A stretch of 64,000 nucleotides of DNA from an uncultured Gammaproteobacteria bacterium (GCA_964519725.1 CAZFKS010000003.1:15821-79820); one strand, 5' to 3'; shown: positions 2,368-62,853, numbered from the stretch's first letter. Notes: generated by a model from the sequence alone, not told the origin. Numbers and translations: made by a program.

Positions 2368-2462
2368 AGAAATAGTTCTTAACGTCAATGACGGTGAGTA
2401 AAATGTCTATGGGAAGAGGTACTATAGGTTAATTTTAGGAGTTTGGCAACCTATGATTTGGA

Positions 2463-2495: not shown

Positions 2496-2499
2496 TTAA

Positions 2500-2691
2500 T
2501 TATCTAGTCCCAGTTCGCATGCCCATGCGGCCTTTTTTGCCACCCGGAGCTTTGCCATTAGATCGGAAAGAGGTTGGGGTGGGACGCTGACCACGAGGCA
2601 CACCAAGCCCCCCGCTTCGCTTGCCAGTTTCCATGTTTCCTTTAAATTGACCACTGTACTGAGTAATTTTAACTACATTTAGTTTAGGCAT
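2500..2691 (-). CDS. small basic Gly/Arg-rich protein (64 aa from MPKLNVVKIT...), existence uncertain
   Basis: ORF-track frame 2500..2715; internal ATG at 2691 sits 1 nt after the upstream gene stop. Very basic composition. No family recognised. Confidence 0.25.
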   Translation of the reverse strand: MPKLNVVKITQYSGQFKGNMETGKRSGGLGVPRGQRPTPTSFRSNGKAPGGKKGRMGMRTGTR

Positions 2692-2692
2692 A

Positions 2693-5344: not shown

Positions 5345-5351
5345 GGACTTA

Positions 5352-10676: not shown

Positions 10677-11104
10677 AAAACTGCGGCTAAATATTTTTCT
10701 TGTTTACCAAACATAACTTTGGCTTCAGCTTCGACCAGGTGGTCATAACCAAGAATATGAAGAGTGCCGTGAATGAGCATGCGCAAAAACTCTTCTTTGG
10801 CACTTACTTCCCAAACTTTGGCTTGGCGCTTGATTTGCGCAAGACTAATGAACATGTCACCCAACTCAGATTCGGTTTTGCCTGGCCAATTACCTTCGGT
10901 GGCCGCAAACGATAACACATCTGTCGTTTTATTTTTGCCGCGGTGCACATGGTTCATTTTTTTCATGGTCGCATCACCAATTAAGTGAACACTGATTGAA
11001 CCTTTTTTGTGTTCTCTTTGCAAAACAAAAAAAATTGTCTGTTCAATTTTTTTGTTCGATACTGGGGCTTTGGTTTTTACTTTGGAAAAAATGAGGCATT
11101 CCAT
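10673..11104 (-). CDS. ybeY: rRNA maturation endoribonuclease YbeY
   Basis: HGTLHILGYDH zinc-binding motif and TDVLSF motif; 143 aa. Confidence 0.9.
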   Translation of the reverse strand: MECLIFSKVKTKAPVSNKKIEQTIFFVLQREHKKGSISVHLIGDATMKKMNHVHRGKNKTTDVLSFAATEGNWPGKTESELGDMFISLAQIKRQAKVWEVSAKEEFLRMLIHGTLHILGYDHLVEAEAKVMFGKQEKYLAAVL

Positions 11105-11105
11105 A

Positions 11106-12161: not shown

Positions 12162-12163
12162 AA

Positions 12164-31747: not shown

Positions 31748-31754
31748 TCAAATA

Positions 31755-31806
31755 AAAAATCCCCCCTGATCCGTCAGTTGACGGACGAAGGGGGATTTTT
31801 TATTTT
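31755..31806 (+). terminator. strong rho-independent terminator (nested hairpin ATCCCCC...CCGTC-AGTT-GACGG...GGGGGAT followed by T-run)
   Basis: Long GC stem directly after the lipoprotein stop, followed by TTTTTTATTTT. The low-GC block ends here. Confidence 0.7.
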
Positions 31807-32076
31807 CGGTGTGGGCCCAGAGCAACGACGTCACGAACCAGATTCACGGTACCGACGTCGCGGAGGCGCCTCCGGCAAATAATAATAACTTCGTGAACAT
31901 CCGGCCGCACTTTGACAAGATCCTCAAAGGACAACCGGACTGAGCGCCGGTCGGGTTGCATTGGGGACGCAGTCCGTGGTGACGCGTGAGCCCTTTCGCC
32001 TCACTACAGGGAGCGCACGGTAGTTCATAGACGTTGTGTCCGCGTGCCGCTTCTGGTACCAAAGCTCCGGAGGCCC

Positions 32077-39018: not shown

Positions 39019-39213
39019 TGCGCCTCAAGAGGCCCTCACGAACCTGCTTGGGAGCGGACGTCACCTCCTCGCGCTTCGTTGGCGTTGTAGTTCCGGGCTG
39101 GCGCCTTTTGATTCCCGACCAACGCTGTGCCTGTCGTGCTGCTTCGCTGCCGCATGAGGAATGTCTCACCGGAACGGCCGTCTCGCGCGCCGTCAACTCG
39201 TAATTAGGCGCCT

Positions 39214-39229
39214 GTTTCCCCGGGGAAAC
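39214..39229. promoter_or_regulatory. 16-bp perfect palindrome GTTTCCCCGGGGAAAC (copy 1), candidate operator
   Basis: 10 nt after the giant Cys-rich gene stop and about 195 nt upstream of the CTLD gene start. Confidence 0.5.
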
Positions 39230-39238
39230 ACGGTTCCT

Positions 39239-48586: not shown

Positions 48587-49354
48587 TTAGGGCCCGGCCA
48601 GGGTCAAGCGTGCATGCTCGTCGGCCGCCGTTTTCAAGCACGCTTTCTTGGAAATAGCCTTCTGCACCTTCGCGTCCTCGTACCCCTGGTCACGCTGCCT
48701 CAAGAATGCTGTTCGGAGCACCTCCCAAGGGAAGATCCCGTCCACGGCGACTCTCCGTAGCTCCTCGACGGTGATAAGGATGTGAATTCGGCCGCGCAGC
48801 CAATCATGAAACAGATCACCGGCATAGCCCTTCCCGCTACCGAACCCGAATCCCGCGGCAGAGAATGCCACGCCGAAGGTGCAGCCGTGACTACTCATGC
48901 GGCCGCAGTGCTGAGCCCAATCTGCAGGCCCCATCGGAGCTATGTGGTTCTTCGCCTCCATGTAGAGGTTCGGTCCGGCGACGACCGCCATCCCAGCGCC
49001 GAGAATTCGGTCGATACGGTCGGGGAATACCTCGCCCTTACCATCGATGGTCCATCGGTTGCTGAGCCCACCTTTCTGTACGTCCCGCGCCACTCCACCT
49101 CTTTCGAGAAAGTAGCGCGCCACATCCTCCAATGGATCGCCCTTCACCGCTGTTGTCTGGTTGCCAGCCGCGGGGAGGTTTGCCTGCGTCGACGTGATAA
49201 AAGCGCGGTAGAGCTGCCGATAGGCCGCGGGATCCCAGCCGCCGAGAACCGCGTACGTGGCCTCGTACACCGCCCCCATCCCGCCAAGTTCATGAACCCG
49301 AGCGGCAATGGCCATCAGATGGCTAACATCCGGCTCAGGCGTGGGCGCGGTCAT
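48587..49354 (-). CDS. hypothetical protein translationally coupled to the 3' end of the Type ISP gene
   Basis: 255-aa ORF from ATG 49354, overlapping the upstream gene by about 20 nt. Gly-rich GFGFGSGKGYAGD segment. No family recognised. Confidence 0.45.
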   Translation of the reverse strand: MTAPTPEPDVSHLMAIAARVHELGGMGAVYEATYAVLGGWDPAAYRQLYRAFITSTQANLPAAGNQTTAVKGDPLEDVARYFLERGGVARDVQKGGLSNRWTIDGKGEVFPDRIDRILGAGMAVVAGPNLYMEAKNHIAPMGPADWAQHCGRMSSHGCTFGVAFSAAGFGFGSGKGYAGDLFHDWLRGRIHILITVEELRRVAVDGIFPWEVLRTAFLRQRDQGYEDAKVQKAISKKACLKTAADEHARLTLAGP

Positions 49355-52300
49355 CAAGGGCCCCTTCGGCCAAGAAGAACCGGATTCTGATCACCACGTC
49401 GTGCGGGCCATCGACGACGCGCGCGCACTCAGGGCAGGCGCTATTATACCGTCCTGCGAGCGCGAGGCTCTGAACACGGTCGGCGCTCGGCTCCTCCGGC
49501 CCGACGGCGCCGTTGCAGACCCGGTGATGAGGAATGAATCTCGCTCGAAACCATCCAACAAGCAGGAGCGCCAGCATGGCGTCACGAGCGGGCTCAGGAT
49601 TCCAATCTTTGCTGATCATCGCCGCAAGTGGGACTTGCCCGTCCAGCGTCGCAGCACCCACTTCAGCAGAGCGGCGTATGAACGCTGCGGCCTCCGCGGG
49701 CTCGAGGCGGAAGGTGCGCCTCAAGATCTGAATTGACCGGCCAAGAATGTCCCTGGGCGCTTCATCCTCGGCCGCCGCTGGATCCAGTTTGCCGGTCAAA
49801 CCACGAATAATCCGAACGGATTCGACCGCGACGGTGACCGCCTTCTTTAGAAGCCCAACAATATACATCGGATCGGACGACGCATCGTTCGGGTCCGACG
49901 CTATGCCGCTGTCCCTATCGGATGACGCCTCGTACTGATCCATCACCCATTCGAGGGGTGTCCGACCATTGATGACGTACTCATGTGCCTCGGGAGGGAT
50001 ACCGGCGAGCATAAGAGAAGAGTTTACACAGATACAGCTCTTGTCTACCTTCTTGCCCTCCCGCGCATATTGCATTCGGGTCACACGATAGGCACCTGGG
50101 TCGCGAGTCAGCGCAGTCCATTGCTCGCGCAGCGGGTACTCCGCTGCGGTCTCGTACCCCACATGCAGGGCAGAAAGCCTTCGACCGGCCGCAGCGAACG
50201 CGTCGAATGCACGACTCAGCGGAATGCGAGGAGGTTGGACCTTCAACTCGTTGGCGAACCGATCGCGATAATCGGGAGAGTGAAGAACGCCATAGACATA
50301 GAAGAAGATATCTTCCTTGGTGATGTCGTCTCGCGCGTAGCTGACACGGAACCAGTTTAGCGCTGCGTCTGTAATCGCCTCCCGGCGTCCACCAATTTGG
50401 TCGCCCGACGTTGCCTGAAAGAGATCAGTGGGCGACCCCTCGGCGGCGTAGACGAATCTCGGAAAGAACTGCGTGCCATCCGGAGCCACCTTCGAGTCTG
50501 GCAAGGTATCGGTCATTAGCACCGAGAACGCCCGTCGAGTTCCTGCCGCCGGCACGCAGATGGCGAGGTTCGGCGAGTTCGCCCCCGGAAACATCTCGGG
50601 GAGTTCGCCAACCAGTTCATTCATCCCGCGGTCGAAGTAGACCCACTTCTTGCAAAAGGGACGATACAACGCGCGTACGATGCGCTCTTCCGAGAACGGA
50701 TGGTCCCTTCCTGCCTTCAAAGCGTTTTTTAGACCGCGGCTCCATTTGATGCGGCGCTCGTCACGGTCAATGAAGGACTCTATGTCGAGCCATTGGGCTT
50801 TCTTGCGGCCGCTATTCGCCTTCCGGTAAGCAATGACATGCTGGTTGTAGACGGCGCTCATTCGTCGCATGTTGGCGGCCACTGCTGCAGCCGAGAAGCC
50901 ATACGCCCAGGCGTCGCGATTGGTCACGATGCCTGACGCGTACGTGCTGAACACGGTGAGCGGCTCGGTTCTGTCGCGGTCCTTTTCACCAAGCGCCAGG
51001 AGATGGCCGAAGTCGTCGCCTCGCTGTCTGACCCAGTCCCCCGCCGCGTTCGGCGTCACCTCGACCCAAGGCACTCCCTTGACGCTCTGGAACTCGGCCA
51101 CGCGCTGGAGCTTCTCGGGCGCGGTTAGGTAGTCGCCAATGTCATGGTAGAGCAGTCGCCTGGGTTGTGCCGCGGATGGATTACGCACGAGGACCGTAAT
51201 CGCGACTCCCGCCCTGCTTCCAGAACCGAATACCTTTCCGCCCTCCATCCGTGAAACAACGCCCTGGGTGCGCTGATCCCCACGAAGGTCGAAGCAATAG
51301 ATCGAGGTGAACTCGTCCCCAACACACTTCCGGAACCCGTCCATTGTCTTCTTCGACACGATGGCGCCGTTGCTTACGAACGCAATGACCCCTCGTTCCT
51401 TCAGGCGGTCGCTGGCCCATCTGAACGCCCGAATATACGAGTCGTAGAGGTTTCTTACCAAGTCCGCGCTTGAACTCGCCGCATAGGTTTGGCGGATACG
51501 TTCGTCGAGCTGAGGGTATTCGAGGTTCACGTTCCCGTCGTTCTGGCTCTCCTGCCCCACCGACCATGGTGGATTGCCAATTACGACGCGAATATCGGTC
51601 TCGTTCTGCAAAGCAGCCCGCCGATTGTTCTCTGGGAACATTGAGGCGAGGGTAGTCCCTCGCGTCTCGGTCATCTGAAAGGTGTCGGTTAGTACGATCC
51701 CCGGAAATGACTCGTATGGGGCTCCGGACAGCGCGTGGTAGGTGCTCTCGATGTTCACAGCCGCGATGTAGTACGCAAGCAAAACGAGCTCGTTGGCGTG
51801 AAGCTCTTTCAAATACTTGCGGCGGAGGTCCGCGCGGGCAATGAGGCCGCTCTGAAGTAGGCGAACGAGGAAGGTGCCTGTACCCGTAAACGGGTCCAGG
51901 ACGTGCACCCCCTCAGCCGAAAGACCGACGCCGAACTCCGCTGTCAGCACCGCCTGTACGCTGTGAATGATGAAATCCACGATCTCGACGGGGGTGTAGA
52001 CAATGCCAAGGCGTTCCGCCGTCCGCGGGAATGCGGTCCGGAAGAACTTGTCGTAAAGTTCAATGACGATGCGCTGCTTGCCTTCGGCATTATCGATCCC
52101 GCGTGCGCGGATTCGAACGCTCTCATAGAAGCTCTCCAGGGCCACCGTTTCCTTTTCGAGGTTCTCCTCCTGGAGTGCATCCAGCATCTTCTGCATGGCC
52201 ACGGAGACTGGATTCGAGCGAGTGAACTCATGCCCATCGAATAGCGCGTCGAAGACTGGGCGAGTGATAAGATGCTGCGAGAGCATTTCAATCGCGTCAT

Positions 52301-54551
52301 CTCTGCTGACGCTGGGATTCAGACTCGCTTGCAGCTCGGCAAGGAACTCTGCAAAGGCACGGCGCGCGACGCTACCCTTTCCATCCACAAGGGCCGATAT
52401 TCGAGCGACGTGACGTTCCGCGATTTCAGCAACATCCTTTGCCCAAGTCTCCCAGTAGCGCCGGTCTCCGCACTTTTCGACGATGCGCGCGTAAATGGCA
52501 TCGCGCCACTCCCCAATCTGCGGGAATGCGAGGTAGTATTGCTGCCCCTCACCATTCGGCGCGCGGCTCTGGCTCGTACCCTCGGTCTCGCGGCCCGAGA
52601 CGCCGACTACTTGGATCTGCGGTGGTCTGGTCTTGTTCAGTTCCAGCTGATTGATGGTCGCATTAAACCGGTCATCGTGCGCCCGCAGGGCCTGGAGAAC
52701 CTGCCATACGACTTTGTACTTCTGATTGTTTTTGAGGGCTTCATCCGGGCGCATGTCGGCAGGAATCCCGATAGGAAGGATGATGTACCCGTACTGCTTA
52801 CCTTCAGCTCGTCGCATCACCCGGCCAACCGACTGCACGACGTCGACGACCGAGTTTCGGGGGTTTAGAAACATGACGGCGTCGAGCGCAGGCACGTCCA
52901 CGCCTTCTGAGAGGCAGCGGGCATTCGAGAGGACCCGGCAGATCCCATCGCCGCCGGACTCTGCCTTCAGCCAATCAAGTCGTGCATTCCGCGCCAGCGC
53001 ATTGAAGGTACCATCCACATGGTCGACCTCGCACCGCAGCAGGCCTGGCTCTTCGGGATGCTCCTTGATGTAGGACTCGACAACCTGACCAAACAGGCCG
53101 GTGATTCGTTTGCTGTCTTTGATTGACCGGCAAAACGCCACCGCCCGCTTCATCGGAGCTGGGTCGGTCTCAGTCGCAGCTGAATCCTCGGTGAACCGCT
53201 TCGCGAGGCCGTTCCAGCACCCGGTGATCTTGACCGCGTCCTCGAGCCGGAGCTCGGAATCTTCGTCCGCGAGCTGCTTTTGGAACGTGCGGCTCACGTA
53301 TTTCTCGTCGACCGCGAGCACCATCACCTTGTAATCGGTGAGGAGTCCGGAGGCGACCGCTTCGGAAAACCCGAGCCGATGGAACTCCGGACCGTAGAGC
53401 CGTTCGTCGTCCATGGACGCGATCTCAGCGTCGTTCTCCTCGGCCTTCGTCTTGGTGACGTCGCTGAAGATACGCGGCGTGGCGGTCATGTATAGCCGGC
53501 GCTGAGCACGCACGAAGTCGCCGTCATGGACTCGGACGAAGTGCGATTCATCCTCGTCGGCGAGTTTCACGCCGGTCGTGCGGTGAGCCTCATCGCAGAT
53601 AATGAGGTCGAACTCCGGGAGCCCCTTTTTCTGAGCATCGGCGACTGCCTGGATCGACTGGTAGGTCGAGAAAACGACCGTGAGCTTTCCGTTGCCACCG
53701 TGCTTCCCGGCCTTTGCGAGGAGAGCGGCGTTGGTAGTGGCAGGGAACGCCAAGTCATGCGTGTGGAGGTCCTCGCTGTCGGCCGGCCGTCCGACCTGGG
53801 TATCCGAGCACACCGCGAACGCGCGAAGTTTCCGGCTCGCCTCCGAGGTCCACTCGCGGAGGGACTGAGAAAGCAGGGAGATCGATGGAACAAGAAACAG
53901 GACCGTAGCCGACTCTTTCGGAGTGAGTTCCTCGGCGATGCGAAGGGCAGTGAACGTTTTGCCGGTCCCGCAGGCCATGATTAGCTTTCCACGGGCGCTC
54001 GTCCGGAAACCATCACGTACTTTTCCTAGCGCGACCTGTTGATGCGGACGAAGGTCTTTCCGTTTGCGGAGCTGGATGTCCTCGGGCTTCCTGAGACTGA
54101 ACCGGCTCCAATCGATTGGACTTTCCGCCAGGTCCTGAACGCGAAGGCGCGTTACCGGAAGCGTCTGTCCGGTAAGCGCGTCCTCGGCATGCTTACTCCA
54201 CCGGTCAGTGGTGGAAACCAAGAGCCGGGTCGTGAAGGGTGCCTTTCCAGAGGCCGTGAAAAAAGAGTCGATATCGCCCTTCTGAAGATAGTGATCCGGG
54301 TCGAAGAACTTGCACTGGATAGCGCAGAAGCCTTCGGTCTCGCGCTCGCGCGCCACGAGGTCAATGCCCGTGTCCGGGCGGTGGCCACGCTCGGGCCATT
54401 CATTCCACAGCCACACGTCGCTGAACCGAGCCTTGTAAAGGGGGTCGGTCCGGAGATACGCCGCGATCAACCGCTCGAAGCGGTCGCCCTGGTCTCGCTT
54501 GGAGCGGGCTCCGACGCGCAGTTCGTCAAGGATGGCGTGAATCGAGGGCAT
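49335..54551 (-). CDS. Type ISP-like single-polypeptide restriction-modification enzyme: N-terminal Mrr-family PD-(D/E)xK nuclease, SF2 helicase-like ATPase, gamma-class N6-adenine DNA methyltransferase, C-terminal target-recognition region
   Basis: DTGIDLVARERETEGFCAIQCK (D...E.K nuclease); MACGTGKTFTAL Walker A; LIICDEAHRTTG DEAH box; VLDPFTGTGTFLV (MTase motif I); VIGNPPWSVGQ (motif IV NPPW); 1,738 aa. Confidence 0.75.
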   Translation of the reverse strand: MPSIHAILDELRVGARSKRDQGDRFERLIAAYLRTDPLYKARFSDVWLWNEWPERGHRPDTGIDLVARERETEGFCAIQCKFFDPDHYLQKGDIDSFFTASGKAPFTTRLLVSTTDRWSKHAEDALTGQTLPVTRLRVQDLAESPIDWSRFSLRKPEDIQLRKRKDLRPHQQVALGKVRDGFRTSARGKLIMACGTGKTFTALRIAEELTPKESATVLFLVPSISLLSQSLREWTSEASRKLRAFAVCSDTQVGRPADSEDLHTHDLAFPATTNAALLAKAGKHGGNGKLTVVFSTYQSIQAVADAQKKGLPEFDLIICDEAHRTTGVKLADEDESHFVRVHDGDFVRAQRRLYMTATPRIFSDVTKTKAEENDAEIASMDDERLYGPEFHRLGFSEAVASGLLTDYKVMVLAVDEKYVSRTFQKQLADEDSELRLEDAVKITGCWNGLAKRFTEDSAATETDPAPMKRAVAFCRSIKDSKRITGLFGQVVESYIKEHPEEPGLLRCEVDHVDGTFNALARNARLDWLKAESGGDGICRVLSNARCLSEGVDVPALDAVMFLNPRNSVVDVVQSVGRVMRRAEGKQYGYIILPIGIPADMRPDEALKNNQKYKVVWQVLQALRAHDDRFNATINQLELNKTRPPQIQVVGVSGRETEGTSQSRAPNGEGQQYYLAFPQIGEWRDAIYARIVEKCGDRRYWETWAKDVAEIAERHVARISALVDGKGSVARRAFAEFLAELQASLNPSVSRDDAIEMLSQHLITRPVFDALFDGHEFTRSNPVSVAMQKMLDALQEENLEKETVALESFYESVRIRARGIDNAEGKQRIVIELYDKFFRTAFPRTAERLGIVYTPVEIVDFIIHSVQAVLTAEFGVGLSAEGVHVLDPFTGTGTFLVRLLQSGLIARADLRRKYLKELHANELVLLAYYIAAVNIESTYHALSGAPYESFPGIVLTDTFQMTETRGTTLASMFPENNRRAALQNETDIRVVIGNPPWSVGQESQNDGNVNLEYPQLDERIRQTYAASSSADLVRNLYDSYIRAFRWASDRLKERGVIAFVSNGAIVSKKTMDGFRKCVGDEFTSIYCFDLRGDQRTQGVVSRMEGGKVFGSGSRAGVAITVLVRNPSAAQPRRLLYHDIGDYLTAPEKLQRVAEFQSVKGVPWVEVTPNAAGDWVRQRGDDFGHLLALGEKDRDRTEPLTVFSTYASGIVTNRDAWAYGFSAAAVAANMRRMSAVYNQHVIAYRKANSGRKKAQWLDIESFIDRDERRIKWSRGLKNALKAGRDHPFSEERIVRALYRPFCKKWVYFDRGMNELVGELPEMFPGANSPNLAICVPAAGTRRAFSVLMTDTLPDSKVAPDGTQFFPRFVYAAEGSPTDLFQATSGDQIGGRREAITDAALNWFRVSYARDDITKEDIFFYVYGVLHSPDYRDRFANELKVQPPRIPLSRAFDAFAAAGRRLSALHVGYETAAEYPLREQWTALTRDPGAYRVTRMQYAREGKKVDKSCICVNSSLMLAGIPPEAHEYVINGRTPLEWVMDQYEASSDRDSGIASDPNDASSDPMYIVGLLKKAVTVAVESVRIIRGLTGKLDPAAAEDEAPRDILGRSIQILRRTFRLEPAEAAAFIRRSAEVGAATLDGQVPLAAMISKDWNPEPARDAMLALLLVGWFRARFIPHHRVCNGAVGPEEPSADRVQSLALAGRYNSACPECARVVDGPHDVVIRIRFFLAEGALDDRAHA

Positions 54552-54938: not shown

Positions 54939-55625
54939 CTACTCGACCGTGCCATCGGCGCGGGCCGCGAGCTGCTCCCGGAGCGCCCCGAGCCGCTCCC
55001 ACGCTTCGTCGAGCTGGAGCCGCATCTCGCGGGCCGCCTTCTCGTCGAGCCCATCCAACTTCGCCGGCGTCAGTCGCTTCAGGTTCAGCCCGTCGAGCGC
55101 CTTCATGACCTTGCGAAGGTTCTTCACCGGCTCTGGCTCCGGCTTCCGTCCCCGCTTCTCCCCCGGAATCTCCTTGGCCCGGACCTTCTTCACCCGCTGC
55201 TCGAGCTCGCGCTTCCCGAGGTTCTTCTCGATAGCTTCGCTCGCGAGCTTCAGCTTCTTCTCCGGGTCCTTGACCGGCAGGAGGAGCTTGTGGTGCGAGA
55301 GCGGGAGCGCCTCCGCGATGTTCTCGGGCAGCTGCTTCAGCTGGTCCACGACCGCGACCGCGTTCCAGATGAACTGGTAGTTCACTCGGAGGTCCGTCCG
55401 CTCCCCGAGCTTTCGGAACGTGACGTGCTTCCTTCCGTGCGTGCGGAAGTTCGCCGTGTCCCCGTCAAAGAACCGGTCGAGGACGTACGACCCGATGGCC
55501 CGGGTCATCTCGAGGCCCTTCGCTACGTAGAGGCGGTTGATCTCGGCAACCGCCTCGGACAGCGCGGCCTCGTCGACTTCGCCACCTTCTTCCGGAACCA
55601 CTGCGAGCGTCTTCTCACGCGCCAT
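54939..55625 (-). CDS. ParB/KorB-like nuclease-domain protein
   Basis: LSHHKLLLPVKDPEKKLKLASEAIEKNLGKRELEQRVKKV resembles the ParB HTH/linker region; 228 aa. Coordinates from ORF track. Confidence 0.45.
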   Translation of the reverse strand: MAREKTLAVVPEEGGEVDEAALSEAVAEINRLYVAKGLEMTRAIGSYVLDRFFDGDTANFRTHGRKHVTFRKLGERTDLRVNYQFIWNAVAVVDQLKQLPENIAEALPLSHHKLLLPVKDPEKKLKLASEAIEKNLGKRELEQRVKKVRAKEIPGEKRGRKPEPEPVKNLRKVMKALDGLNLKRLTPAKLDGLDEKAAREMRLQLDEAWERLGALREQLAARADGTVE

Positions 55626-55692
55626 GGCGGCACCTCCAGAGCAGGGACGCTAATCCCCTCCACGCCCTAGGTCAACTCGGAATCAGGTGCTT

Positions 55693-55708
55693 GTTTCCGC
55701 GGGGAAAC
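55693..55708. promoter_or_regulatory. 16-bp near-palindrome GTTTCCGCGGGGAAAC (copy 3, one asymmetric position)
   Basis: About 68 nt upstream of the ParB-like gene start; next to element B copy 1. Confidence 0.45.
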
Positions 55709-55731
55709 ATGCCGTCCCGCAGGGACGTGCT

Positions 55732-55868
55732 TCCCCCTCTGGGGGAGGGGTGGCCGTGAAGCGGGCGGCCCTCCGGCATAGGGGGACCGAGGGGGTGACG
55801 GGGCCAGCGGCCGCCCCGCCCCCAAGGGGGGCGGAAGCGCCGCGGCCATAAGAAGATAGGCCCACCCG
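55732..55868 (-). repeat. element B copy 1: about 137-bp GC-rich multi-hairpin element just downstream of the P-gene stop
   Basis: TCCCCCTCTGGGGGAGGG...GCCGCCCCGCCCCCAAGGGGGGCGG...GATAGGCCCACCC; about 88% identical (by eye) to 61125-61263. Confidence 0.6.
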
Positions 55869-55871
55869 CAT

Positions 55872-56228
55872 TTATTCATTCTGCCTGGCCGCAAGCGCGG
55901 CGCGGAGACGGCGGGCGCGCCGGTCAAGCGAAACAAGCGTCTTCGCGAGTTCGGCCGTAGGGAGCCGGTGGTAGTACTCGAACATGACGGCTTCCCAGTC
56001 GAAGACAAGGGCGGCGTCGGGCTCGCCCGGCACCGAGAACGCGACGGACGCGGCGTAGATTTCCATCGCTATCGGCTCGTCCTGGGCGTGCAGCGTGAAC
56101 GCGAGGCCCGTCGACTCGACGAACGCCGCGAGCTGCGTCGGCGATGGGCGCCGGGATGGAAACGCGGACCGTAGCCGGTCGGCTATCCCCCGTGCGGTGG
56201 CGAGCCGGTTCTTTCGGTCGCGGGTCAT
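55872..56228 (-). CDS. small protein, family P member 1 (unknown function)
   Basis: 118 aa; homologous to the genes at 56225-56587 and 61268-62005 (QLAAFVESTGLAF...ALVFDWEAVMFE...LDRRARRLR). Confidence 0.5.
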   Translation of the reverse strand: MTRDRKNRLATARGIADRLRSAFPSRRPSPTQLAAFVESTGLAFTLHAQDEPIAMEIYAASVAFSVPGEPDAALVFDWEAVMFEYYHRLPTAELAKTLVSLDRRARRLRAALAARQNE

Positions 56229-56587
56229 AGGACTGCAAGTCGGGCGGCGAGCGCGGCGCCAACCGTCTGGGCCTCGGCGTCAAGCCGAAGAATCTCTTCG
56301 GCGAGCTCTTCCATGGTCCAGTGGCTGCCGAAGCCGAAGAGCGCTTCGTCGCCAAAGAGGGCGCCTGACACAAGGGACGTACCTGAAAGCGGAATCGTGA
56401 GTGGCGCGACGGCGACGAACGCCCGGAACCCGGTTTCCGGGTCGTGCGTGTCAATGAGCCTGACGGTAAGGTCCGAAAAAGACACGAAAGCGGCGATGTC
56501 GTCGTGCGTCGGCGCGTCCGGGAGCTCGTCTCGAAGGCGCTCGGCGAGTGCAAGAACCTCGGGTGAATAGGTCGTATCAGCGGTCAT
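56225..56587 (-). CDS. small protein, family P member 2 (unknown function)
   Basis: 120 aa; overlaps member 1 by 4 nt; shares the DDIAAFVSF...FRAFVAVAPLTIPL core with the paralogs. Confidence 0.5.
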   Translation of the reverse strand: MTADTTYSPEVLALAERLRDELPDAPTHDDIAAFVSFSDLTVRLIDTHDPETGFRAFVAVAPLTIPLSGTSLVSGALFGDEALFGFGSHWTMEELAEEILRLDAEAQTVGAALAARLAVL

Positions 56588-56993
56588 ACGGAACGGTTAC
56601 GAACAAGAGTGCGAGCCCGCGAGTGGTCGGGGCGGCGCGCGGAACACGTGGTTGCCGGTGGTGGTCGAGGTCGTGTCATAGGAGGCGGGCCGGGGCCGTT
56701 ATCCGCCCCGCGGCTCCCGCGTGGCGACTGGACTCCCTGCCCGATACCGGGAGCCGATTAGCCAGGCGGCCCGTCCACAGGTCAAGGCCCTCGGCCGCTC
56801 TCGGACGGGCGCCTTGCCGCCCGGGGGTAACCTGTGGGCGGACGTCTGGCAGGCTCAACCGGCAGGGCGGGAGGCCGGGAGCTGAGCGGGACCGCTCGTG
56901 TTCGCGTTGTCTCTCGGCTGTTGGCTGTTCGGGTGGGCCTGTCCGGCCGACGTGCGCCGTGGGGCGCCGACGGCAAGGACTCCTTATGGGGGG
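56588..56993 (-). repeat. element A copy 1: about 400-bp conserved non-coding leader directly upstream of the P-gene start codon (candidate structured RNA / regulatory leader)
   Basis: About 95% identical (by eye) to the split copy at 62006-62367 plus 62797-62853. Contains long GC stems, e.g. CGGCTCCCG...CGGGAGCCG and GGCGGCCCGTCC...GGACGGGCGCC. Track ORFs over it are Arg/Pro-rich artefacts. Confidence 0.6.
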
Positions 56994-57056
56994 AGCCGCG
57001 CCGCGGCGACTAAGTCCCCCATGGAAGCCCGGCGCGCGCGGGCGCAGCGATAGCGT

Positions 57057-57072
57057 GTTTCCCCGGGGAAAC
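57057..57072. promoter_or_regulatory. 16-bp palindrome GTTTCCCCGGGGAAAC (copy 4)
   Basis: Between the SMC-like ATPase gene stop and leader element A copy 1. Confidence 0.5.
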
Positions 57073-57172
57073 AGCATGACCTGGCGCGCTTGCGGCCACG
57101 TTCGCACCCAACCGCGTTCCCACGGCGACGGCCGTTCGTTCGCCACATTTGGCCGAGTTGCGCCACCGCTTC

Positions 57173-58957
57173 CTACTTCACTTCGCCGAGGAAGTGCGGA
57201 CTCTTGGGCCCCTGGAAGGTCGGGGCCCAGGTCTCATCGATCCCTGCCGGCACAACCTCAATATCGGTGGCGCTGTACACGAGCTGAATGGGCGGGTCAG
57301 TCGTCGAGATCATCTTCTTGAACTCAACGACGAAGTCTCGTAGGTCCTCGGCGCTCAGCTCTTGTTGACGGGGCGCATCCAAGATAAGAACTCGGGGATG
57401 CTGCCCGTTCGTCTTGAGCGAGGCTTCGACGAGTGCGGCGTGATATGCGAGCACGAACCGGGCTCGCGTGCTGCCCGAATGACCAGAACCCTTCTTGAAG
57501 ACTTCTCCGTCCACGACGAATCGAAAATCTTCATCCCACGTGACGTCGAGAGCGGTGTTAGGAGTTCGGAGGACCGCCAGCCACCTTCGCGCTGCACCGG
57601 CCAATGCTGATCGAGCGTCGAGGACCCGGTCTCCCGGGCCGCTCCGCCTCGCTCGTGGACGGAGGGAGTCAACTAACTCGGCTTCGGCCCGCTCGCGGTC
57701 GAGAAGGGCGTTGAGCTGGGCTCGCTCGCGCTCGATGCGCTGCAGCCGATCGAGACGGACCCGAACGTCACCGATCTCTCTACTCAGGGTGTCAAGCATG
57801 GCCACGACCGATTCGCCGGGGCTCCGGGCGAGGCCGTCAGTCTTCTCTTTGACGGTAGTATCGAGGGCCGCCTGCGCTTCAGCGAGCTGCGAACCAAGCA
57901 GCCCGATTTCGGTATTCGCGTCCCCGATCCCCGTGACGAAGTCCTTGAGCTGGTCCCTCAAGTAGAGCACCCGGCGGCCATATGACGCTTCCGGGTTCCG
58001 GAAAAACTGGCAACTGCCACTGCCGCACAGCCTTCGGAACACGTCGGCCGCAATTTCGTTCTGTTCGAGAGCAGACAACTCGGTCTCAATCTCGGCCTGA
58101 GCGGCTTGCACCTGCATCATCCGACGCCTCAGGGCGCCATGTCGTTGGCCTAGCTCGTCGCGAATCCTCGTTGCCTCTCGGATTCGGCCATCGTAGACCG
58201 CACTGTCCGCAGCCAACACCTCGAGTGCGGAGTACATCCGAGTTAGCTCGCGCTCCAGGGTCGCGTGCCGCTCCCGAAGTAGAACCGCGCCATCGGGGCT
58301 GGCATCGGCGCCAGTTTCGCGCTGGAGCGCTTCGAGCCCGAGCCTCTTGAACGATATCTGTTCGCGTGTGCCGCCAAGACGTTCTTCAGCGGTTCGGAAG
58401 GCAGACTTGTCGACGGGCTTGTGCTTCGGTGGCAGGTCGAGGAGCCACCGCACCACTTCCTCGCGCTGGTCTCGCACGAACGTAGCTGTCGGCTCGTACC
58501 CGGTGGTCCAGCCCCCGTCCTGCTCAACCAAGAACATCGGGCCAGCCACGCTCAGGTACGCCGGAACTGGAGAGCCGTCACCACTTGAGGTGAGAGTCCG
58601 CGGCGCCGTACCGATTCTCGGAAGTACCCACGCCGAGAGTTCTCGCTCGGTTGCGATTTCGGTGCGCTCGCCGTCAGGTCCCTGAACGCGCACCTCAACT
58701 CCCTTTGCAACGATCTGCCGTTCGAGCGTGTGCTCGCCTAGGCCATCCGTGAGAACGAGGCGGACTGCTTGGCAGCGCTCGCGCACGTCCTTCGGGAACT
58801 CCACCGGAAGCCCCAGCGCGTACATAATCGCCTTCATTACCGGCGTCTTGCCGGAGCCGTTCGGCCCGAGGACCACCGTCGTGTGGCGCCCGAAGCGGAG
58901 TTTGCCAGAGCCCCAGCCTGCTTCGCCCCGCGGGAGGATTTCGAATTCAGTGAGCAT
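57173..58957 (-). CDS. SMC/ABC-type ATPase with central coiled coil (LmuB/DdmC-like)
   Basis: VVLGPNGSGKTPVMKAI Walker A at N-terminus; long Ala/Arg/Glu/Leu-rich coiled coil; C-terminal RVLILDAP Walker-B-like box (Asp-Ala rather than Asp-Glu). ATG overlaps upstream stop (ATGA). Confidence 0.7.
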   Translation of the reverse strand: MLTEFEILPRGEAGWGSGKLRFGRHTTVVLGPNGSGKTPVMKAIMYALGLPVEFPKDVRERCQAVRLVLTDGLGEHTLERQIVAKGVEVRVQGPDGERTEIATERELSAWVLPRIGTAPRTLTSSGDGSPVPAYLSVAGPMFLVEQDGGWTTGYEPTATFVRDQREEVVRWLLDLPPKHKPVDKSAFRTAEERLGGTREQISFKRLGLEALQRETGADASPDGAVLLRERHATLERELTRMYSALEVLAADSAVYDGRIREATRIRDELGQRHGALRRRMMQVQAAQAEIETELSALEQNEIAADVFRRLCGSGSCQFFRNPEASYGRRVLYLRDQLKDFVTGIGDANTEIGLLGSQLAEAQAALDTTVKEKTDGLARSPGESVVAMLDTLSREIGDVRVRLDRLQRIERERAQLNALLDRERAEAELVDSLRPRARRSGPGDRVLDARSALAGAARRWLAVLRTPNTALDVTWDEDFRFVVDGEVFKKGSGHSGSTRARFVLAYHAALVEASLKTNGQHPRVLILDAPRQQELSAEDLRDFVVEFKKMISTTDPPIQLVYSATDIEVVPAGIDETWAPTFQGPKSPHFLGEVK

Positions 58958-59436
58958 CAGAGTAGCTCCAGACCTCGGAGTCGAACCCGCTCGTGTGCCT
59001 TTGCGAGTGATCGAACAAGCGCACCAACATCGGTAATTTGAACCCGCAGATCCGAAAGAAGTGCCCGGCCGGTGGCGGAGGTGCTGACGCGACGAAGCGA
59101 CCCCTCGACCACATCAACCAAGCCAACAGTCTCAAGAATTGCGAGACCATCGGCGCACCGAGCGCGAAGCGAAACAGACCACTTCAGTCGACTTCTCGTC
59201 CCTCCGTCCGGGTCGAATCGCTCTGCAAGCACCGCGAGTGTCCATGTGGCTAGTTCACTGGTGCGGAGTTCGCCGTGACGCGCGTGTGTCACGACAAGAA
59301 TCGCGAGTGCGATAAGAGGCGTGTGGAAGAGCGTGTCGGCCGACAGGCCAGCTACGCGGTCGAGCCCGTCGGCGTTGACCTGCAACCGGACGTTTGCCGC
59401 CATTGCTGCTTCGATCAATTGTTCGAGGGTCCTCAC
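58957..59436 (-). CDS. small middle subunit of the three-gene operon (LmuC/DdmB-position protein)
   Basis: 159-aa ORF (GTG start at 59436, or ATG 59403) overlapping both neighbours. Confidence 0.45.
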   Translation of the reverse strand: MRTLEQLIEAAMAANVRLQVNADGLDRVAGLSADTLFHTPLIALAILVVTHARHGELRTSELATWTLAVLAERFDPDGGTRSRLKWSVSLRARCADGLAILETVGLVDVVEGSLRRVSTSATGRALLSDLRVQITDVGALVRSLAKAHERVRLRGLELL

Positions 59437-60605
59437 GGCTCCGCCTCGACAGCCAGCGCCAGGATCGCGCCGAAAACGAGTGACTTGGTGAGTGGCTTCG
59501 TGGCGCCAATTGTGGCGTACCTCTGTGCGAGTGCACTCGCCTCATTCACGAGCCAGTCTAACGCCTTTCGGTCGGACACGTAGATCCGGAGCACGTCGCG
59601 GCAGTCCTTCTTTAGCAGGAGCAGGTCAGCAAGGTCGATCGTGGATCGTTCGGCGATAACCCACTCATCCCATCCCGTCTTCAGCTGACACCAGTCGGGA
59701 ATATGTGATTCGTCAATGCCGCTTCGCTGACAAAGCCGGTGAAGGCGCGAAAGAGCTACTACAGTTTGAAGGCCGGTCTCCTTAAGCGCTCGGTATCCCG
59801 TCGCCGAGAGGCTGAGGAGCTTTAGGATGTCCTCGAGGACGAGCGCCTTTTCCGACCGCAAGTCTGCCGGTGTCGACGGAAGGGCCTTCAGCACACGCTG
59901 GGACTTTCCGCGCACGACCGTGACAAGGCTTTCGCCGATGCGGAGTGCCTCGGACATTCGCAGGTCGACCTCAGAGAGCTTTCGAATTCGATTGCCGATC
60001 TCCAGCCGGCAGACGTCCTGATCGTGGAGTTTCCCGACGCACTCCTGCACGTGGAGACGCTGGAGGAAGGAGAGGAAGCTGGCCTCATCAAGACCAGGAA
60101 CCGCGGCCGGAAGGACTGCCACGACGTCCTGAAATATCCGAAGCGACTCACCGGCAAGCTGCGAATGAGAGGTGACGTTCTTCGCCTCCGTCAACAGGGC
60201 GTCGAACTCCGACGCAACCGCGGCGTTCGTGACGAAGACGAATCGGGCGCAACGCCCTCCGAAGCGAGTGGTGTGATCGAACATCTTCGGAAAAATGGCG
60301 GTCGCGTCGGCGGTGTACGGTGCCCTACGTCCTTTGAGCCCGAAGAACTCCTTCCACGACCAGGGACCTTCACTCGGCGAGCGGGTCTTCACCTGGTGGA
60401 ATCGGTACGAGATTATCGTGGCTTCCTCGAATACGTAGTCATCATGCCACTCGCAATAGATGCACACGTACTGATTTTCATCGAGAACGAGAAGCGCATC
60501 GTATGCCGCTTGATGATATTGGAACTCATAACGAGCGCCGGTGACGGCGCCGACCTGCTCGCGCGGCTCGCTCTGAAACAGTTCACGTCCGACCGGAGCG
60601 CTCAC
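59433..60605 (-). CDS. DUF4297-like (Cap4/LmuA-type) PD-(D/E)xK nuclease-domain protein, candidate effector
   Basis: N-terminus GARYEFQYHQAAYDALLVL then CEWHDDYVFEE...FHQVK fits the D...QxK restriction-endonuclease-like core; 390 aa; GTG start. Confidence 0.55.
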   Translation of the reverse strand: MSAPVGRELFQSEPREQVGAVTGARYEFQYHQAAYDALLVLDENQYVCIYCEWHDDYVFEEATIISYRFHQVKTRSPSEGPWSWKEFFGLKGRRAPYTADATAIFPKMFDHTTRFGGRCARFVFVTNAAVASEFDALLTEAKNVTSHSQLAGESLRIFQDVVAVLPAAVPGLDEASFLSFLQRLHVQECVGKLHDQDVCRLEIGNRIRKLSEVDLRMSEALRIGESLVTVVRGKSQRVLKALPSTPADLRSEKALVLEDILKLLSLSATGYRALKETGLQTVVALSRLHRLCQRSGIDESHIPDWCQLKTGWDEWVIAERSTIDLADLLLLKKDCRDVLRIYVSDRKALDWLVNEASALAQRYATIGATKPLTKSLVFGAILALAVEAEP

Positions 60606-60984
60606 CGCAGGTCACCTCTTGTCCAGTCAGTGCCTTGAGGTGCGCGCGGTCACGCACCGTAGGCAGATCCCGTTCATCGCCGATACAGTAAGTGGGGCGG
60701 AGGTAGGCGTCAATCCGGGAAATTGCGGAAGCACCGAGTTCTCTTTGGGGGAGGAGACGGAGGAGACGGCAACTTCCCGCGGTCAAATCCATGTGCGGTC
60801 CTGTCCCACTGGCTGCGCCCGAAATGCCCGTCGACAGCAAGAACAGGTGATCGTCTTCTTCGCGAACAGGGACGATGAAACGCGAGTCCAATGCCCGCAT
60901 GGGCGGGACCGCGGCTGACAGGACGTCCTCGTCGACTGGAAGGACGCCCGGGAGTGAAGATGCAGGCGCGTTGCTATCATCCAT
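60583..60984 (-). CDS. possible 133-aa ORF at the head of the operon
   Basis: ATG at 60984 lies 51 nt downstream of a GTTTCCCCGGGGAAAC palindrome and overlaps the next gene by 23 nt. No domain. Could be spurious. Confidence 0.25.
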   Translation of the reverse strand: MDDSNAPASSLPGVLPVDEDVLSAAVPPMRALDSRFIVPVREEDDHLFLLSTGISGAASGTGPHMDLTAGSCRLLRLLPQRELGASAISRIDAYLRPTYCIGDERDLPTVRDRAHLKALTGQEVTCGERSGRT

Positions 60985-61034
60985 GAGAACCCGTCCTGGC
61001 GACCGGGATTACGGAGCGTCAACGGAGCAAGCCT

Positions 61035-61050
61035 GTTTCCCCGGGGAAAC
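61035..61050. promoter_or_regulatory. 16-bp palindrome GTTTCCCCGGGGAAAC (copy 5)
   Basis: 51 nt upstream of the ORF starting at 60984. Shares flanks cctGTTTCCCCGGGGAAACacg with copy 1. Confidence 0.5.
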
Positions 61051-61124
61051 ACGCCAGGCGCGCGTTGTCGAAAGACAGCAGCCGGCCAAGCGTTCTCGTT
61101 CGCGGGCGATGCCGCGAACGGACA

Positions 61125-61263
61125 TCCCCCTCTGGGGGAGGGATGGCGGCGAAGCCGACGGCACTCCGGCACAGGGGGACGGGAGGGGGTGACGGGGCCA
61201 GCGGCCGCCCCGCCCCCCGAAGGGGGCGGAAGTGGCGCGGCCATAAAAAGATAGGCCCACCCG
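61125..61263 (-). repeat. element B copy 2
   Basis: Same hairpin series immediately downstream of the family P member 3 stop. Confidence 0.6.
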
Positions 61264-61267
61264 GCTG

Positions 61268-62005
61268 TTAGTCTTCGGTTGCTAGCATGATGGTTGCGAC
61301 GATTTCGAGCTGGTCGCCGCGGTGAACGGCTACGACAAGGGACACCGCGCCGACTTCAAACGGGAGGCGCTCGCCAAGGTCAACGCCGCCTGCGGCCTCG
61401 ATGGCTTCGCGGGCGCCGGCGAGCGCGGCGAGGATTTCGAGGCCGCCGCGGTCCTTCTCGTCGCGCGGCTTGCCAGCCCGGAGGTCCGCGAGCGCACCCA
61501 CCGTGATTGCGACCGGCACCGGAAACCCGGCCGTGCGGGCGACCCCTTCGGCATCTATGAGGACGCCGTCCCCGATTGCCTCGGCGCGGGTGTAGCTGAA
61601 CACGTAGGCGCTCCGGTCCGCGAGTCGGTCCGGCGACCGAACCGGGAACTCAAAGAGCCAGGCAAAGCGAATCGCCCGCGCCCGTTGGTCAAGGCAGTCG
61701 AGCGCGTCCGCGACCTCGGCGGGTTCAAGCGTCTCGGGCTCGCCCGGCTCGAACGCGAACGCCTCGCGGTCGAATACGAGCGCGGCCCATTCGTCCCGTA
61801 CGCCCGTCTTGACCGTAAGCGGGAGGGCCGCGGCGTAGATGGCAAAGTCGTGCTCCGCATGAAGACGCGACAGCTCGAACGCCAAGAGCGGCGAGGCGGA
61901 CACGAACGCGGCAAACTGGTAGTGCCGCGGCCGCGCGTCCGGGAACTGCTCGGTATAGGCGGTCCGAATCTCGGTAAGCGTGGGCGGCGTAGTGCGGTAT
62001 AGCAT
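61268..62005 (-). CDS. family P member 3 (245 aa, N-terminal P-family core plus C-terminal extension)
   Basis: N-terminal 115 aa align with members 1 and 2 (QFAAFVSASPLLAFELSRLHAEHDFAIYAAALPLTVK...ALVFDREAFAFEP...LDQRARAIR). Flanked by the same A and B elements. Confidence 0.5.
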   Translation of the reverse strand: MLYRTTPPTLTEIRTAYTEQFPDARPRHYQFAAFVSASPLLAFELSRLHAEHDFAIYAAALPLTVKTGVRDEWAALVFDREAFAFEPGEPETLEPAEVADALDCLDQRARAIRFAWLFEFPVRSPDRLADRSAYVFSYTRAEAIGDGVLIDAEGVARTAGFPVPVAITVGALADLRAGKPRDEKDRGGLEILAALAGAREAIEAAGGVDLGERLPFEVGAVSLVVAVHRGDQLEIVATIMLATED

Positions 62006-62367
62006 ACATGATGGTTAGTAAGAGCGGGCCACGGTACCGGGGGCGGTACGTGGTCACGGGACGGCGCGCGGAACGCCGCGGTTACCGGTGGTGGTCGAGG
62101 TCGTGTCATAGGATGCGGGCCGGGGCCGTTATCCGCCCCGCGGCTCCCGCGTGGCGACTGGACTCCCTGCCCGATACTGGGAGCCGATTAGCCAGGCGGC
62201 CCGTCCACAGGTCAAGGCCCTCGGCCGCTCTGGGACGGGCGCCTTGCCGCCCGGGGGCAACCTGTGGGCGGACGTCTGGCAGGCTCAACCGGCAGGGCGG
62301 GAGGCCCGGGAGCCTAGCGGGGCCGCTCGTATCGCGTTGGCTGTTGGCTGTTCGGGTGGGCCTGTCC
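62006..62367 (-). repeat. element A copy 2, proximal part
   Basis: Aligns from the P3 start codon through ...TTCGGGTGGGCCTGTCC, where the alignment is interrupted by a 429-bp insertion. Confidence 0.6.
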
Positions 62368-62796
62368 TTGGGCGCTCACGAGAATTGACCCGGGGTCTGC
62401 TCGTCTGGAGTGATCCAATCGCAGCGTGGGTTGGGTGGTTCGCTCCCGCGGGGTTGCGCTCGTTCCAGTCGGCTGCGAGCCGCGTCCGGCGCACGATCTG
62501 CGACTTCGAACGCAGCCGACTTCCACGACCGCCCATTGGAAGGCCACAAACCGGTTGCTGGACCGTGGGGCCTATGGCATCTTCTCCCTCGTGACGCCGC
62601 TCCGAGTGGTGTCAGCCTCCGTTGGCCCGTGGCAACCGGGCAACGTCGAGGCCATGAGCCGAAAACGTTGTACATCAAAAGTAGTTGGCGGGCGCGCGCG
62701 GTGCTTCGAGACCTGAGGAGCGCGGCTGGGCGGTCGTGTTCCGTCGGTGGATCAGTTTCGGCGAGCACGATTGGATCAGTTCAGGCGAGCACCGAA
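62368..62796. mobile_element. 429-bp MITE-like non-autonomous insertion flanked by 9-bp direct duplication GGCCTGTCC, imperfect terminal inverted repeats
   Basis: Absent from the otherwise collinear copy 1 of element A. GGCCTGTCC present at 62359-62367 and 62797-62805. Ends TTGGGCGCTCACGAGAATTGACC ... GGATCAGTTCAGGCGAGCACCGAA are imperfect inverted repeats, and GATCCAATCG / CGATTGGATC lie near the two ends. Confidence 0.5.
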
Positions 62797-62853
62797 GGCC
62801 TGTCCGGCCGACGTGCGCCGTGGGGCGCCGACGGCAAGGACTCCTTATGGGGG
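62797..62853 (-). repeat. element A copy 2, distal part (resumes after the insertion)
   Basis: GGCCTGTCCGGCCGACGTGCGCCGTGGGGCGCCGACGGCAAGGACTCCTTATGGGGG identical to 56937-56993. Confidence 0.6.

Follow-up and report, generated by a model that had tools for sequence, protein, structure and literature searches.

What three small proteins of no assigned function are doing inside a bacterial defence island is the question raised by P1, P2 and P3, which are encoded in a stretch of 64,000 nucleotides from an uncultured Gammaproteobacteria bacterium (GCA_964519725.1, CAZFKS010000003.1:15821-79820; this whole stretch is hereafter called the window). The original prediction, made from the sequence alone, was that they are fast-diverging paralogs between conserved flanks, as might be expected of immunity or antitoxin, anti-defence or phase-variable cassette genes. 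We found that all three proteins share a domain, here called P-core, that P3 additionally carries a divergent DUF6573 domain, and that the genes lie between an upstream non-coding element containing a long hairpin (UP) and a downstream element (DN), both of which recur in other genomes. Among the options originally offered, an anti-defence or establishment role was, judged from genomic context, the most consistent, and our tentative reading, to which we assign a probability of roughly 0.37, is that the three proteins evolve fast, serve a mobile element in anti-defence or establishment, and are expressed under the control of a hairpin element.

Homology among the proteins was supported by pairwise BLASTP (P1-P3, E=6e-11 with 45% identity over 98 aa; P2-P3, E=2e-6; P1-P2, E=1e-3), by an alignment with 20 invariant columns (including AAFV, ALxxD and LDxxA), and by a profile built from P1-P3 that picked up independent homologs bearing the same motifs. 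The proposed paralogy was thus confirmed, as was the tandem arrangement of the two smaller genes, in which the P2 stop and the P1 start overlap by 4 nt (ATGA, 56225-56228). A word-indexed protein search with P3 returned P3 alone, and an exhaustive profile search was needed to find relatives. Among 1.84 billion representative proteins, P-core homologs outside the window were limited to P0004, P0007, P0008 and P0012, with a few additional paralogs confined to loci that already hold one of these four. P1, P2, the N-terminal half of P3 and the four outside proteins form one family (hidden Markov model (HMM) E values of 1e-39 to 1e-48; P1, E=8.6e-40), for which a seven-member alignment yielded a confident AlphaFold2 model of a compact alpha3-beta3-alpha fold (predicted local distance difference test (pLDDT) 85.5; predicted template modelling score (pTM) 0.78). 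The homology, the outside homologs with the same motifs and the confident fold together indicate that P1-P3 are real genes and not chance open reading frames (ORFs) of a GC-rich strand.

No match of known function was obtained for P-core in Pfam, PHROGs, NCBIfam, PADLOC, PDB sequences, or Foldseek comparisons with PDB and BFVD, and hhalign showed no relation between P-core and DUF6573. Structure models matched no metabolic fold and zero homologs were located in housekeeping surroundings, both in keeping with the original prediction. P-core is a new, unnamed and extremely rare protein family. It also diverges rapidly, as had been anticipated: between the flanks, the P proteins of the window share just 24-45% identity, and P3 is 34% identical to P0004, its fusion ortholog, vs 70% for a neighbouring ParB helix-turn-helix (HTH)-like gene compared between the same two loci.

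The 130-aa extension of P3 had been regarded as an anonymous tail, and this view did not hold, since profile evidence places the C-terminal half of P3 in a divergent branch of the known Pfam family DUF6573. The Pfam model itself (PF20213) gave P3 only 21 bits (E=3.7e-4), below its gathering score of 27, and matched residues 135-169 only. A profile search with P3 against the same representatives returned 366 proteins, nearly all of which aligned to P3 positions ~133-245; these relatives are stand-alone proteins of ~120 aa or C-terminal domains that end in ...TIMLPxED, and ten of them scanned against Pfam scored 39-98 bits on PF20213. An HMM built from 40 relatives scored P3 at E=3.5e-31 over HMM positions 5-127. 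All of the invariant columns of the family (Y12, R14, A17, D20, L23, G104, D105, V110 and T112) are present in P3, which shows the signature residues Y-x-R...A..D-G..L..D and, at the C-terminus, G-D...V.T.M...E-D. Compared to the family as a whole, the P3 domain shares Y-T-R-x-x-A-I-x-D-G-V-L-I/V-D near its start, T-I-M-L-x-x-E-D at its C-terminus, and the typical length and C-terminal position, but its branch lacks the central 'QDE.GRLWDVL' typical of plasmid members and it is both sub-threshold in Pfam and fused to P-core. Its AlphaFold2 model was confident (pLDDT 90.5), and no match of known function was found in PHROGs, NCBIfam, PADLOC, PDB sequences or Foldseek against PDB. The statement that the proteins have no recognisable domain is therefore not correct for residues ~133-245 of P3.

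The two modules are fused in only two proteins, P3 and P0004, and are encoded by adjacent genes in loci L002 (in the order P-core, DUF6573, P-core), L011 and L139; a P-core tandem with a 4-nt overlap occurs in L004 as it does for P2-P1. Wherever sequence was available, P-core was linked to DUF6573 or was part of a P-core tandem. DUF6573 was always C-terminal, with variable parts ahead of it (P-core, Cys-rich segments or Sel1 repeats).

All six lineages recovered carried these genes in a bracketed cassette, consisting of UP, then one to three small P-core and/or DUF6573 genes, then DN (Table 1). Seven cassettes were found in the six lineages (the window; L002/L003, a Myxococcales metagenome-assembled genome (MAG); L004; L008/L009/L010; L011; and L139), with L008/L009/L010 carrying two and the window carrying two (A and B). 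Gene content varied from P-core only or DUF6573 only to the fusion, in one to three genes. Within the window, the UP repeat (56623-56992 vs 62050-62367 plus 62797-62853) is 93-100% identical and the DN repeat (55689-55868 vs 61031-61263) ~89% identical, such that the flanks are conserved more strongly than had been claimed; what had been missed is that they are specific non-coding elements, with a hairpin and an inverted-repeat bracket, that are common to other genomes. The hairpin core of UP is 85-90% identical across lineages, while P3 and P0004 retain only 34%.

Table 1. Positions of the cassette components and neighbouring features in the window.
Feature	Position	Strand	Remarks
P1	55872-56228	minus	118 aa; basic, isoelectric point (pI) 9.8; second gene of cassette A
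P2	56225-56587	minus	120 aa; acidic, pI 4.2; first gene of cassette A
P3	61268-62005	minus	245 aa; pI 4.7; cassette B
P3 N-terminal half (aa 1-124), P-core domain	61634-62005	minus	Alignments and HMM, E=1.2e-48
C-terminal half of P3, divergent DUF6573 domain (aa ~133-245 and stop codon)	61268-61609	minus	Motif SYTRAEAIGDGVLID; C-terminal end TIMLATED
UP-A, upstream non-coding element of cassette A	56588-56992	minus	Repeat with UP-B; kept in five other lineages
UP-A hairpin core	56721-56890	+ (complement of P genes)	Covariance model R1, 170 bits, E=5e-35
UP-B proximal	62006-62367	minus	Hairpin 62151-62321; IR-L 62353-62362; covariance model, 168 bits, E=1.5e-34
UP-B distal, separated by insertion	62797-62853	minus	100% identical to 56936-56992
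Miniature inverted-repeat transposable element (MITE)-like insertion interrupting UP-B	62368-62796		429 bp; 9-bp target duplication GGCCTGTCC, 62359-62367 and 62797-805
DN-A	55689-55871	minus	Starts right after P1 stop with CGGGTGGGCC (IR-R, 55859-55868)
DN-B, downstream of cassette B	61031-61267	minus	IR-R 61254-61263
Type II Lamassu, between cassettes B and A	57173-60605	minus	PADLOC; context, outside cassette; LmuA 59433-60605 (E=7e-63), LmuC 58957-59436 (E=1e-15), LmuB 57173-58957 (E=1.7e-119)
ParB-HTH-like gene	54939-55625	minus	228 aa; PF17762, E=9e-5
Type ISP restriction-modification enzyme	49335-54551	minus	1738 aa; Type_ISP_C (E=2e-97), ISP_coupler, Mrr_cat_2, ResIII, N6_Mtase

UP is about 330 nt long. 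The copy in cassette A holds the 10-nt motif GGCCCACCCG (IR-L, 56930-56939), ACAGCCAAC repeats, the long hairpin and a CTATGA block, and the blocks that are invariant across copies are GGCC[C/A]ACCCG, GAGCCTGCCAGAC..CCGCCCACAGGT, CAAGGCGC, GGCCTTGAC, TGGACGG, CGGGCAGGGAG and CTATGA. The direct ACAGCCAAC repeats vary from one to four copies and are absent from L002 and L011. Because the lengths of the spacers between blocks differ among lineages by non-multiples of 3, UP is non-coding; a 64-aa ORF at 56782-56976 (minus strand) was rejected as a candidate gene, as it lacks a start codon in other lineages and its indels are not multiples of three. Long + strand ORFs at 56548-57321 and 62008-62388 cross the UP elements and are GC-rich artefacts that could be mis-called as genes, and in L008 an 86-aa 'gene' has been called across the second UP element (10850-11110).

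Exactly two copies of UP were found in the window with the covariance model, one per cassette. UP matched no family in an Rfam scan of 54-64 kb, where the sole near-match was a sub-threshold chrB-b hit in DN-A (21.9 vs 36.5 bits, E=0.44). An invariant 20-mer of UP, searched in 185,579 species genomes, matched the Myxococcales MAG and one Lachnospiraceae MAG, the latter taken as chance, and gave zero matches in JGI metagenomes. UP is thus not a genome-wide repeat. A first impression that it is widespread was also rejected, since a looser two-block pattern gave 120+ metagenome and 3 viral matches in which the other blocks were missing, consistent with chance; the one true locus that it recovered (L115) lies on the same contig as L009. 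The UP hairpin and the bracket elements are undescribed. The MITE-like sequence that interrupts UP-B was recognised from repeat families D3, D7, I5 and D11; its subterminal inverted repeats span 62398-62421 and 62768-62791, a 24-nt unit is repeated in tandem at 62748-62792, and the window holds no second copy of it.

The core of UP is one long imperfect hairpin of ~170 nt, with 46 consensus pairs in four helices. In the alignment of the seven UP copies, 93.6% of cells were standard pairs vs 35-55% when the partners were slid by 1-3 columns, and six pairs showed compensatory change, a result matched by 1/500 column shuffles. The + strand of UP-A folded with z scores of -4.9 (RNA) and -4.5 (DNA), compared to -2.7 and -2.1 for the other strand. 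Relative to dinucleotide shuffles, the template strand of UP gave z scores across lineages of -4 to -8 (RNA) and -1.3 to -5 (DNA), whereas those of the sense strand were -1.1 to -2.7 (RNA) and -0.3 to -2.4 (DNA), and the difference had the same direction in all five lineages tested. Furthermore, the exchanges between A-U and G-U seen in UP, like its two invariant G·U pairs, are legal only on the template strand, and a sliding-window folding scan ranked UP highest for strand asymmetry within the GC-rich half of the window. From these models, the folded strand of UP appears to be the template strand of the P genes, i.e. the + strand of the window.

The same folding data bear on a plainer interpretation, in which UP is a long structured 5' untranslated region or an ordinary promoter, DN is a terminator region, the small proteins have no special role, and the conservation stems from recent horizontal spread of one element. 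Most UP pairs are Watson-Crick, so a sense RNA would fold too, and the GC-rich hairpins of DN end in a palindrome that is reused at other gene ends; the window copies of UP also contain a promoter-like TTGACC-17-GCTAAT. However, this site was found in the window copies only (with GCTATG at the -10-like position in L008b) and its -10-like hexamer is not kept in other lineages, the sense strand is barely more structured than shuffles, and flanks that are 85-90% identical, though neighbouring proteins fall to 34-70%, argue against recent spread of the whole segment. We consider this interpretation quite unlikely.

DN follows a fixed order, with CGGGTGGGCC directly past the last stop, then a T-rich stretch, then two or three GC-rich hairpins with sequences that co-vary among lineages; it showed no clear strand preference for folding. 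DN-B aligns with L002/L003, and DN motifs recur in L008 and L139. The initial CGGGTGGGCC is an exact inverted copy of GGCCCACCCG in UP, so that each cassette of the window is bracketed by an inverted 10-mer. In L008, the upstream motif is GGCCAACCCG and the downstream motif CGGGTTGGCC, i.e. a matched change on both sides, which fits either base-pairing between transcript ends or a single kind of protein or recombinase site present twice. DN-A ends in the palindrome TGTTTCCCCGCGGAAACA. The palindrome TGTTTCCCCGGGGAAACA is present at 39210-39232, 55689-55713, 57053-57077 and 61031-61055, where it follows a 1962-aa gene, both cassettes and LmuB; it is probably a terminator-like hairpin of this genome, though it has no T-run. 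A scan for intrinsic terminators returned 0 sites.

A further reading is that the cassettes are mobile or recombining units, either integron-like with a hairpin as single-strand recombination site or invertible, phase-variable segments with the 10-bp inverted repeats as their boundaries. The layout is array-like (in L008, DN adjoins the following UP, and in the window cargo lies between two cassettes), the flanks are far more conserved than the cargo, the paired inverted-repeat change in L008 would be expected of recombinase homogenisation, and serine recombinases or an integrase occur near some ParB-HTH-like homologs. Integron arrays likewise consist of small genes of unknown function separated by imperfect palindromes (attC sites) that fold on one strand, as UP does, and they too can hold defence systems. 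Yet no IntI integrase or other recombinase is located beside any cassette, inspection by eye revealed no attC R''/R' core (RYYYAAC / GTTRRRY), and there is no target-site duplication around the cassettes. The elements are also 330+150 nt long and lie on both sides of the genes, whereas attC sites measure 57-141 nt, i.e. UP is 3-5x as long. In addition, all 7 cassettes in the 6 lineages share one orientation relative to the ParB-HTH-like gene (actually in view for 5/7 cassettes: window, L002, L008 and L139), which speaks against the phase-variable option of the original prediction. Recombining units thus appear very unlikely.

Part of the evidence for an anti-defence or establishment role came from the distribution of DUF6573. 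With the P3 domain as the tblastn query, 111 plasmids were matched, of which 100 are predicted to be conjugative, and a more typical DUF6573 query matched 217 plasmids (136 conjugative); neither query matched any phage record. The plasmids are chiefly those of Xanthomonas and Streptomyces and PromA-type broad-host-range plasmids, and the DUF6573 genes lie within long runs of small co-oriented ORFs of no assigned function, beside transfer genes. In pSB102 (L142, AJ304453.1), a bona fide conjugative plasmid, a DUF6573 gene on the + strand (166 aa) is the first of a block of 13 small ORFs, and directly upstream of it is a near-perfect template-strand hairpin of ~230 nt (DNA dG -78 kcal/mol, z -7.9). 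This gene, within 11640-12381, is unannotated in the record, which shows a 39.4-kDa ORF on the opposite strand instead.

In the leading regions of plasmids, a large hairpin functioning as a single-stranded DNA (ssDNA) promoter (Frpo/ssi) stands ahead of every anti-defence or establishment operon, and these hairpins fall into several sequence classes, with near-identical copies within one region (PMC11541004, PMC12672017). The window resembles the Frpo/ssi operons of F, ColIb-P9 and pESBL in having small, fast-evolving, co-oriented genes and, here in silico, a large imperfect template-strand hairpin directly upstream that is repeated in near-identical copies; moreover, its DUF6573 module is found mainly on conjugative plasmids, in pSB102 directly behind such a hairpin. 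It differs in that the locus looks chromosomal or integrative, no -10 box is conserved in UP, and the cassette adds a bracket of inverted 10-mers and the conserved element downstream, neither of which is known from Frpo operons. With ArdA, ArdB/KlcA, ArdC, Ocr and anti-CRISPRs, the cassette proteins share small size, rapid divergence, residence on mobile elements and frequent acidity (DUF6573 members have a pI of about 4.3-4.6, similar to P2 and P3), but they have no sequence or fold similarity to them and P1 is basic.

In the reading that we tentatively favour, P1, P2 and P3 would be the cargo of a small conserved cassette, present in two copies, that belongs to a defence-island element, mobile or integrative, from Myxococcota-like bacteria. 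The proteins may be small, mostly acidic binders that neutralise a defence function of the host or of a competitor; DUF6573 would be their conserved part, and P-core one of several N-terminal or partner modules that can replace each other. The UP hairpin would give the cassette a special mode of expression: it may be a promoter or priming site active in single-stranded form, like Frpo/ssi hairpins, encode an antisense RNA acting in cis to gate leader translation, or serve as a processed leader, and the inverted motifs at the 5' and 3' ends could close the transcript.

Several results weigh against this reading. Neither P-core nor DUF6573 resembles a known anti-defence family in sequence or fold (libraries and Foldseek), and DUF6573 goes unmentioned in the papers of the library searched, as it does in the supplements of the leading-region paper. 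We saw neither a relaxase nor a type IV secretion system (T4SS), coupling protein, oriT or integrase, whether beside the cassettes or elsewhere in the GC-rich half of the window, and related loci likewise showed no relaxase, T4SS or coupling-protein domains; as no conjugation or integrase genes lie nearby, an ssDNA stage is purely hypothetical. After regression on GC content, the UP hairpin has a z of about -1.9 and does not stand out as an extreme within the window, and its strand asymmetry partly tracks the G-richness of the + strand. Covariation support is modest, as most stem positions never vary and the few events come from ~6 lineages. The only conserved promoter signal in UP is a -35-like TTGAC next to the hairpin apex; the other lineages have no -10-like hexamer in UP, and a scan for the sigma-70 promoter consensus gave 0 sites. 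A Xanthomonas plasmid has no hairpin upstream of its DUF6573 gene. Finally, residence in a defence island is equally expected of a defence gene.

A more ambitious version would make UP a new class of single-strand-active element that, together with DN, forms a portable anti-defence cassette, with P-core and DUF6573 as the two modules of a new family of defence inhibitors. UP would then work on ssDNA as a hairpin that is either promoter or priming site, or else be a structured antisense RNA acting in cis, and the cassette, in chromosomal integrative elements of Myxococcota-like bacteria, would be the non-plasmid counterpart of leading regions. We regard this version as unlikely.

The defence-island setting described in the original prediction was borne out by the type II Lamassu system between the paralogs, whose LmuA carries a Cap4 nuclease domain, and by the Type ISP enzyme just downstream. 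A 133-aa ORF (60583-60984, minus strand) between DN-B and LmuA overlaps the LmuA start by 23 nt and had no family match in any library scanned. Cassettes were found without adjacent Lamassu in L002, L008 and L139, and L137 has Lamassu near its ParB-HTH-like gene and no cassette. The P proteins were accordingly rejected as an accessory component of Lamassu, as they did not co-occur with LmuA/B/C, and the cassette is tied to no single defence system. L008, the locus of the other P-core-DUF6573 fusion, has a Dpd-type 7-deazaguanine DNA-modification cluster (1150-6597; QueC, QueE-like radical SAM, QueD/PTPS, DpdA and DndB-like), and also contains an HTH_17 excisionase-like gene and a divergent pair of DndB-like and HNH genes.

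These surroundings are one argument for the main competing reading, which we hold to be doubtful: the cassette would be a small module of its own for defence, abortive infection or a toxin-antitoxin (TA)-like function, with UP antisense RNA as antitoxin or sensor and the proteins as effector and partner (the acidic P2 and basic P1, for example). The known contexts are all defence islands (Type ISP, Lamassu, Type III and IIG restriction-modification (RM), STAND NTPase, Dpd, HNH and SIR2), and conjugative plasmids commonly carry defence systems too. P2 and P1 are translationally coupled and opposite in charge, and the invariant polar residues of DUF6573 (Y, R, D, D) could be catalytic. The better-folding strand of UP is antisense to the genes, and its long bulged hairpin resembles regulatory antisense RNAs: with hok/sok-type TA systems and CopA/CopT, the cassette shares a conserved non-coding leader with such a hairpin. 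The 5' and 3' ends of hok-type mRNAs pair by folding back, and the complementarity of the cassette's 5' leader with the region just past the stop codon is reminiscent of this. On the other hand, no PADLOC model matches the cassette proteins, which contain no recognisable effector domain; they are soluble and of 116-250 aa, whereas hok-type proteins are membrane peptides of ~50 aa, and no long hydrophobic stretch was obvious in their sequences, although no formal prediction was made. Scans found no promoter or terminator for an antisense RNA at the cassette, and cassette composition is very plastic, which would be unusual for a fixed toxin/antitoxin stoichiometry. Divergence much faster than that of the neighbours fits offence no less well than defence.

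The ParB-HTH-like protein is a conserved neighbour of the cassettes, which lie upstream of its gene wherever the contig reaches far enough downstream (window, L002, L008 and L139); the protein of the window is 43% identical to the L002 homolog. Its family comprises 48 clusters, all metagenomic, and six contexts of homologs were inspected. These had a tyrosine integrase (L138), serine recombinases (L136) or IS21 and BREX (L140) beside the gene; TIR/SIR2/methylase genes, a MopE giant protein and Lamassu, in synteny with the window (L137); and, in L139, the cassette followed by an HTH-M78 protein and a Type IIG enzyme. Cassette and UP were missing near the homologs in L136, L137, L138, L140 and L141, and since most contexts thus have no cassette, the cassette is optional within this family of mobile islands rich in defence genes. 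Overall, the neighbours of the ParB-HTH-like family include integrases/recombinases, RM, BREX, Kiwa, TIR/SIR2, Lamassu and Dpd, and the protein may mark or regulate an integrative element or a hotspot for defence islands. Weak similarity to PADLOC PDC-S02 and to DUF1016_N was also observed.

This association could mean that UP and DN are binding or regulatory sites of the ParB-HTH-like protein, with P-core and DUF6573 as accessory regulators or partition-type factors of the island that would govern the upkeep or expression of nearby defence genes and would not be directed at an enemy. Besides the constant gene order, the direct ACAGCCAAC repeats and the inverted 10-mer bracket look like protein-binding sites, and the near-invariant stem sequence fits specific recognition by a protein better than pure structure. 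However, the absence of both cassette and UP beside most homologs indicates that the protein is independent of them, the ACAGCCAAC repeats are not present in every lineage (see above), and regulators seldom drop to 34% identity with the operator kept at 85-90%. We therefore view this explanation as improbable.

The window itself is heterogeneous. GC content jumps from ~0.43 to ~0.60 within roughly 100 bp at 31,750-31,850. The left half encodes housekeeping functions (pyruvate kinase, FtsA, HisRS, signal peptidase and RibB), together with a protein that has a T4SS_pilin domain and an ORF of 3762 aa, and the right half looks Myxococcota-like (MopE/Dicty_CTDC giant protein and C-type lectin) and is syntenic with metagenome contig L137. 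The step reflects a chimeric contig or else a foreign island of very large size.

If the cassette proteins are indeed anti-defence or establishment factors, they would provide the first functional handle on DUF6573, a family that hundreds of conjugative plasmids carry in plant pathogens, actinomycetes and environmental bacteria, and P-core would be a previously undescribed module that pairs with it. A highly conserved and strand-specific hairpin absent from Rfam could then be used to mine anti-defence or establishment genes beyond enterobacterial plasmids, and hairpin-driven early expression would be a feature of integrative islands as well as of plasmid leading regions. Should the cassette instead be a defence module that works with an antisense RNA, it would represent a new small RNA-protein immune system.

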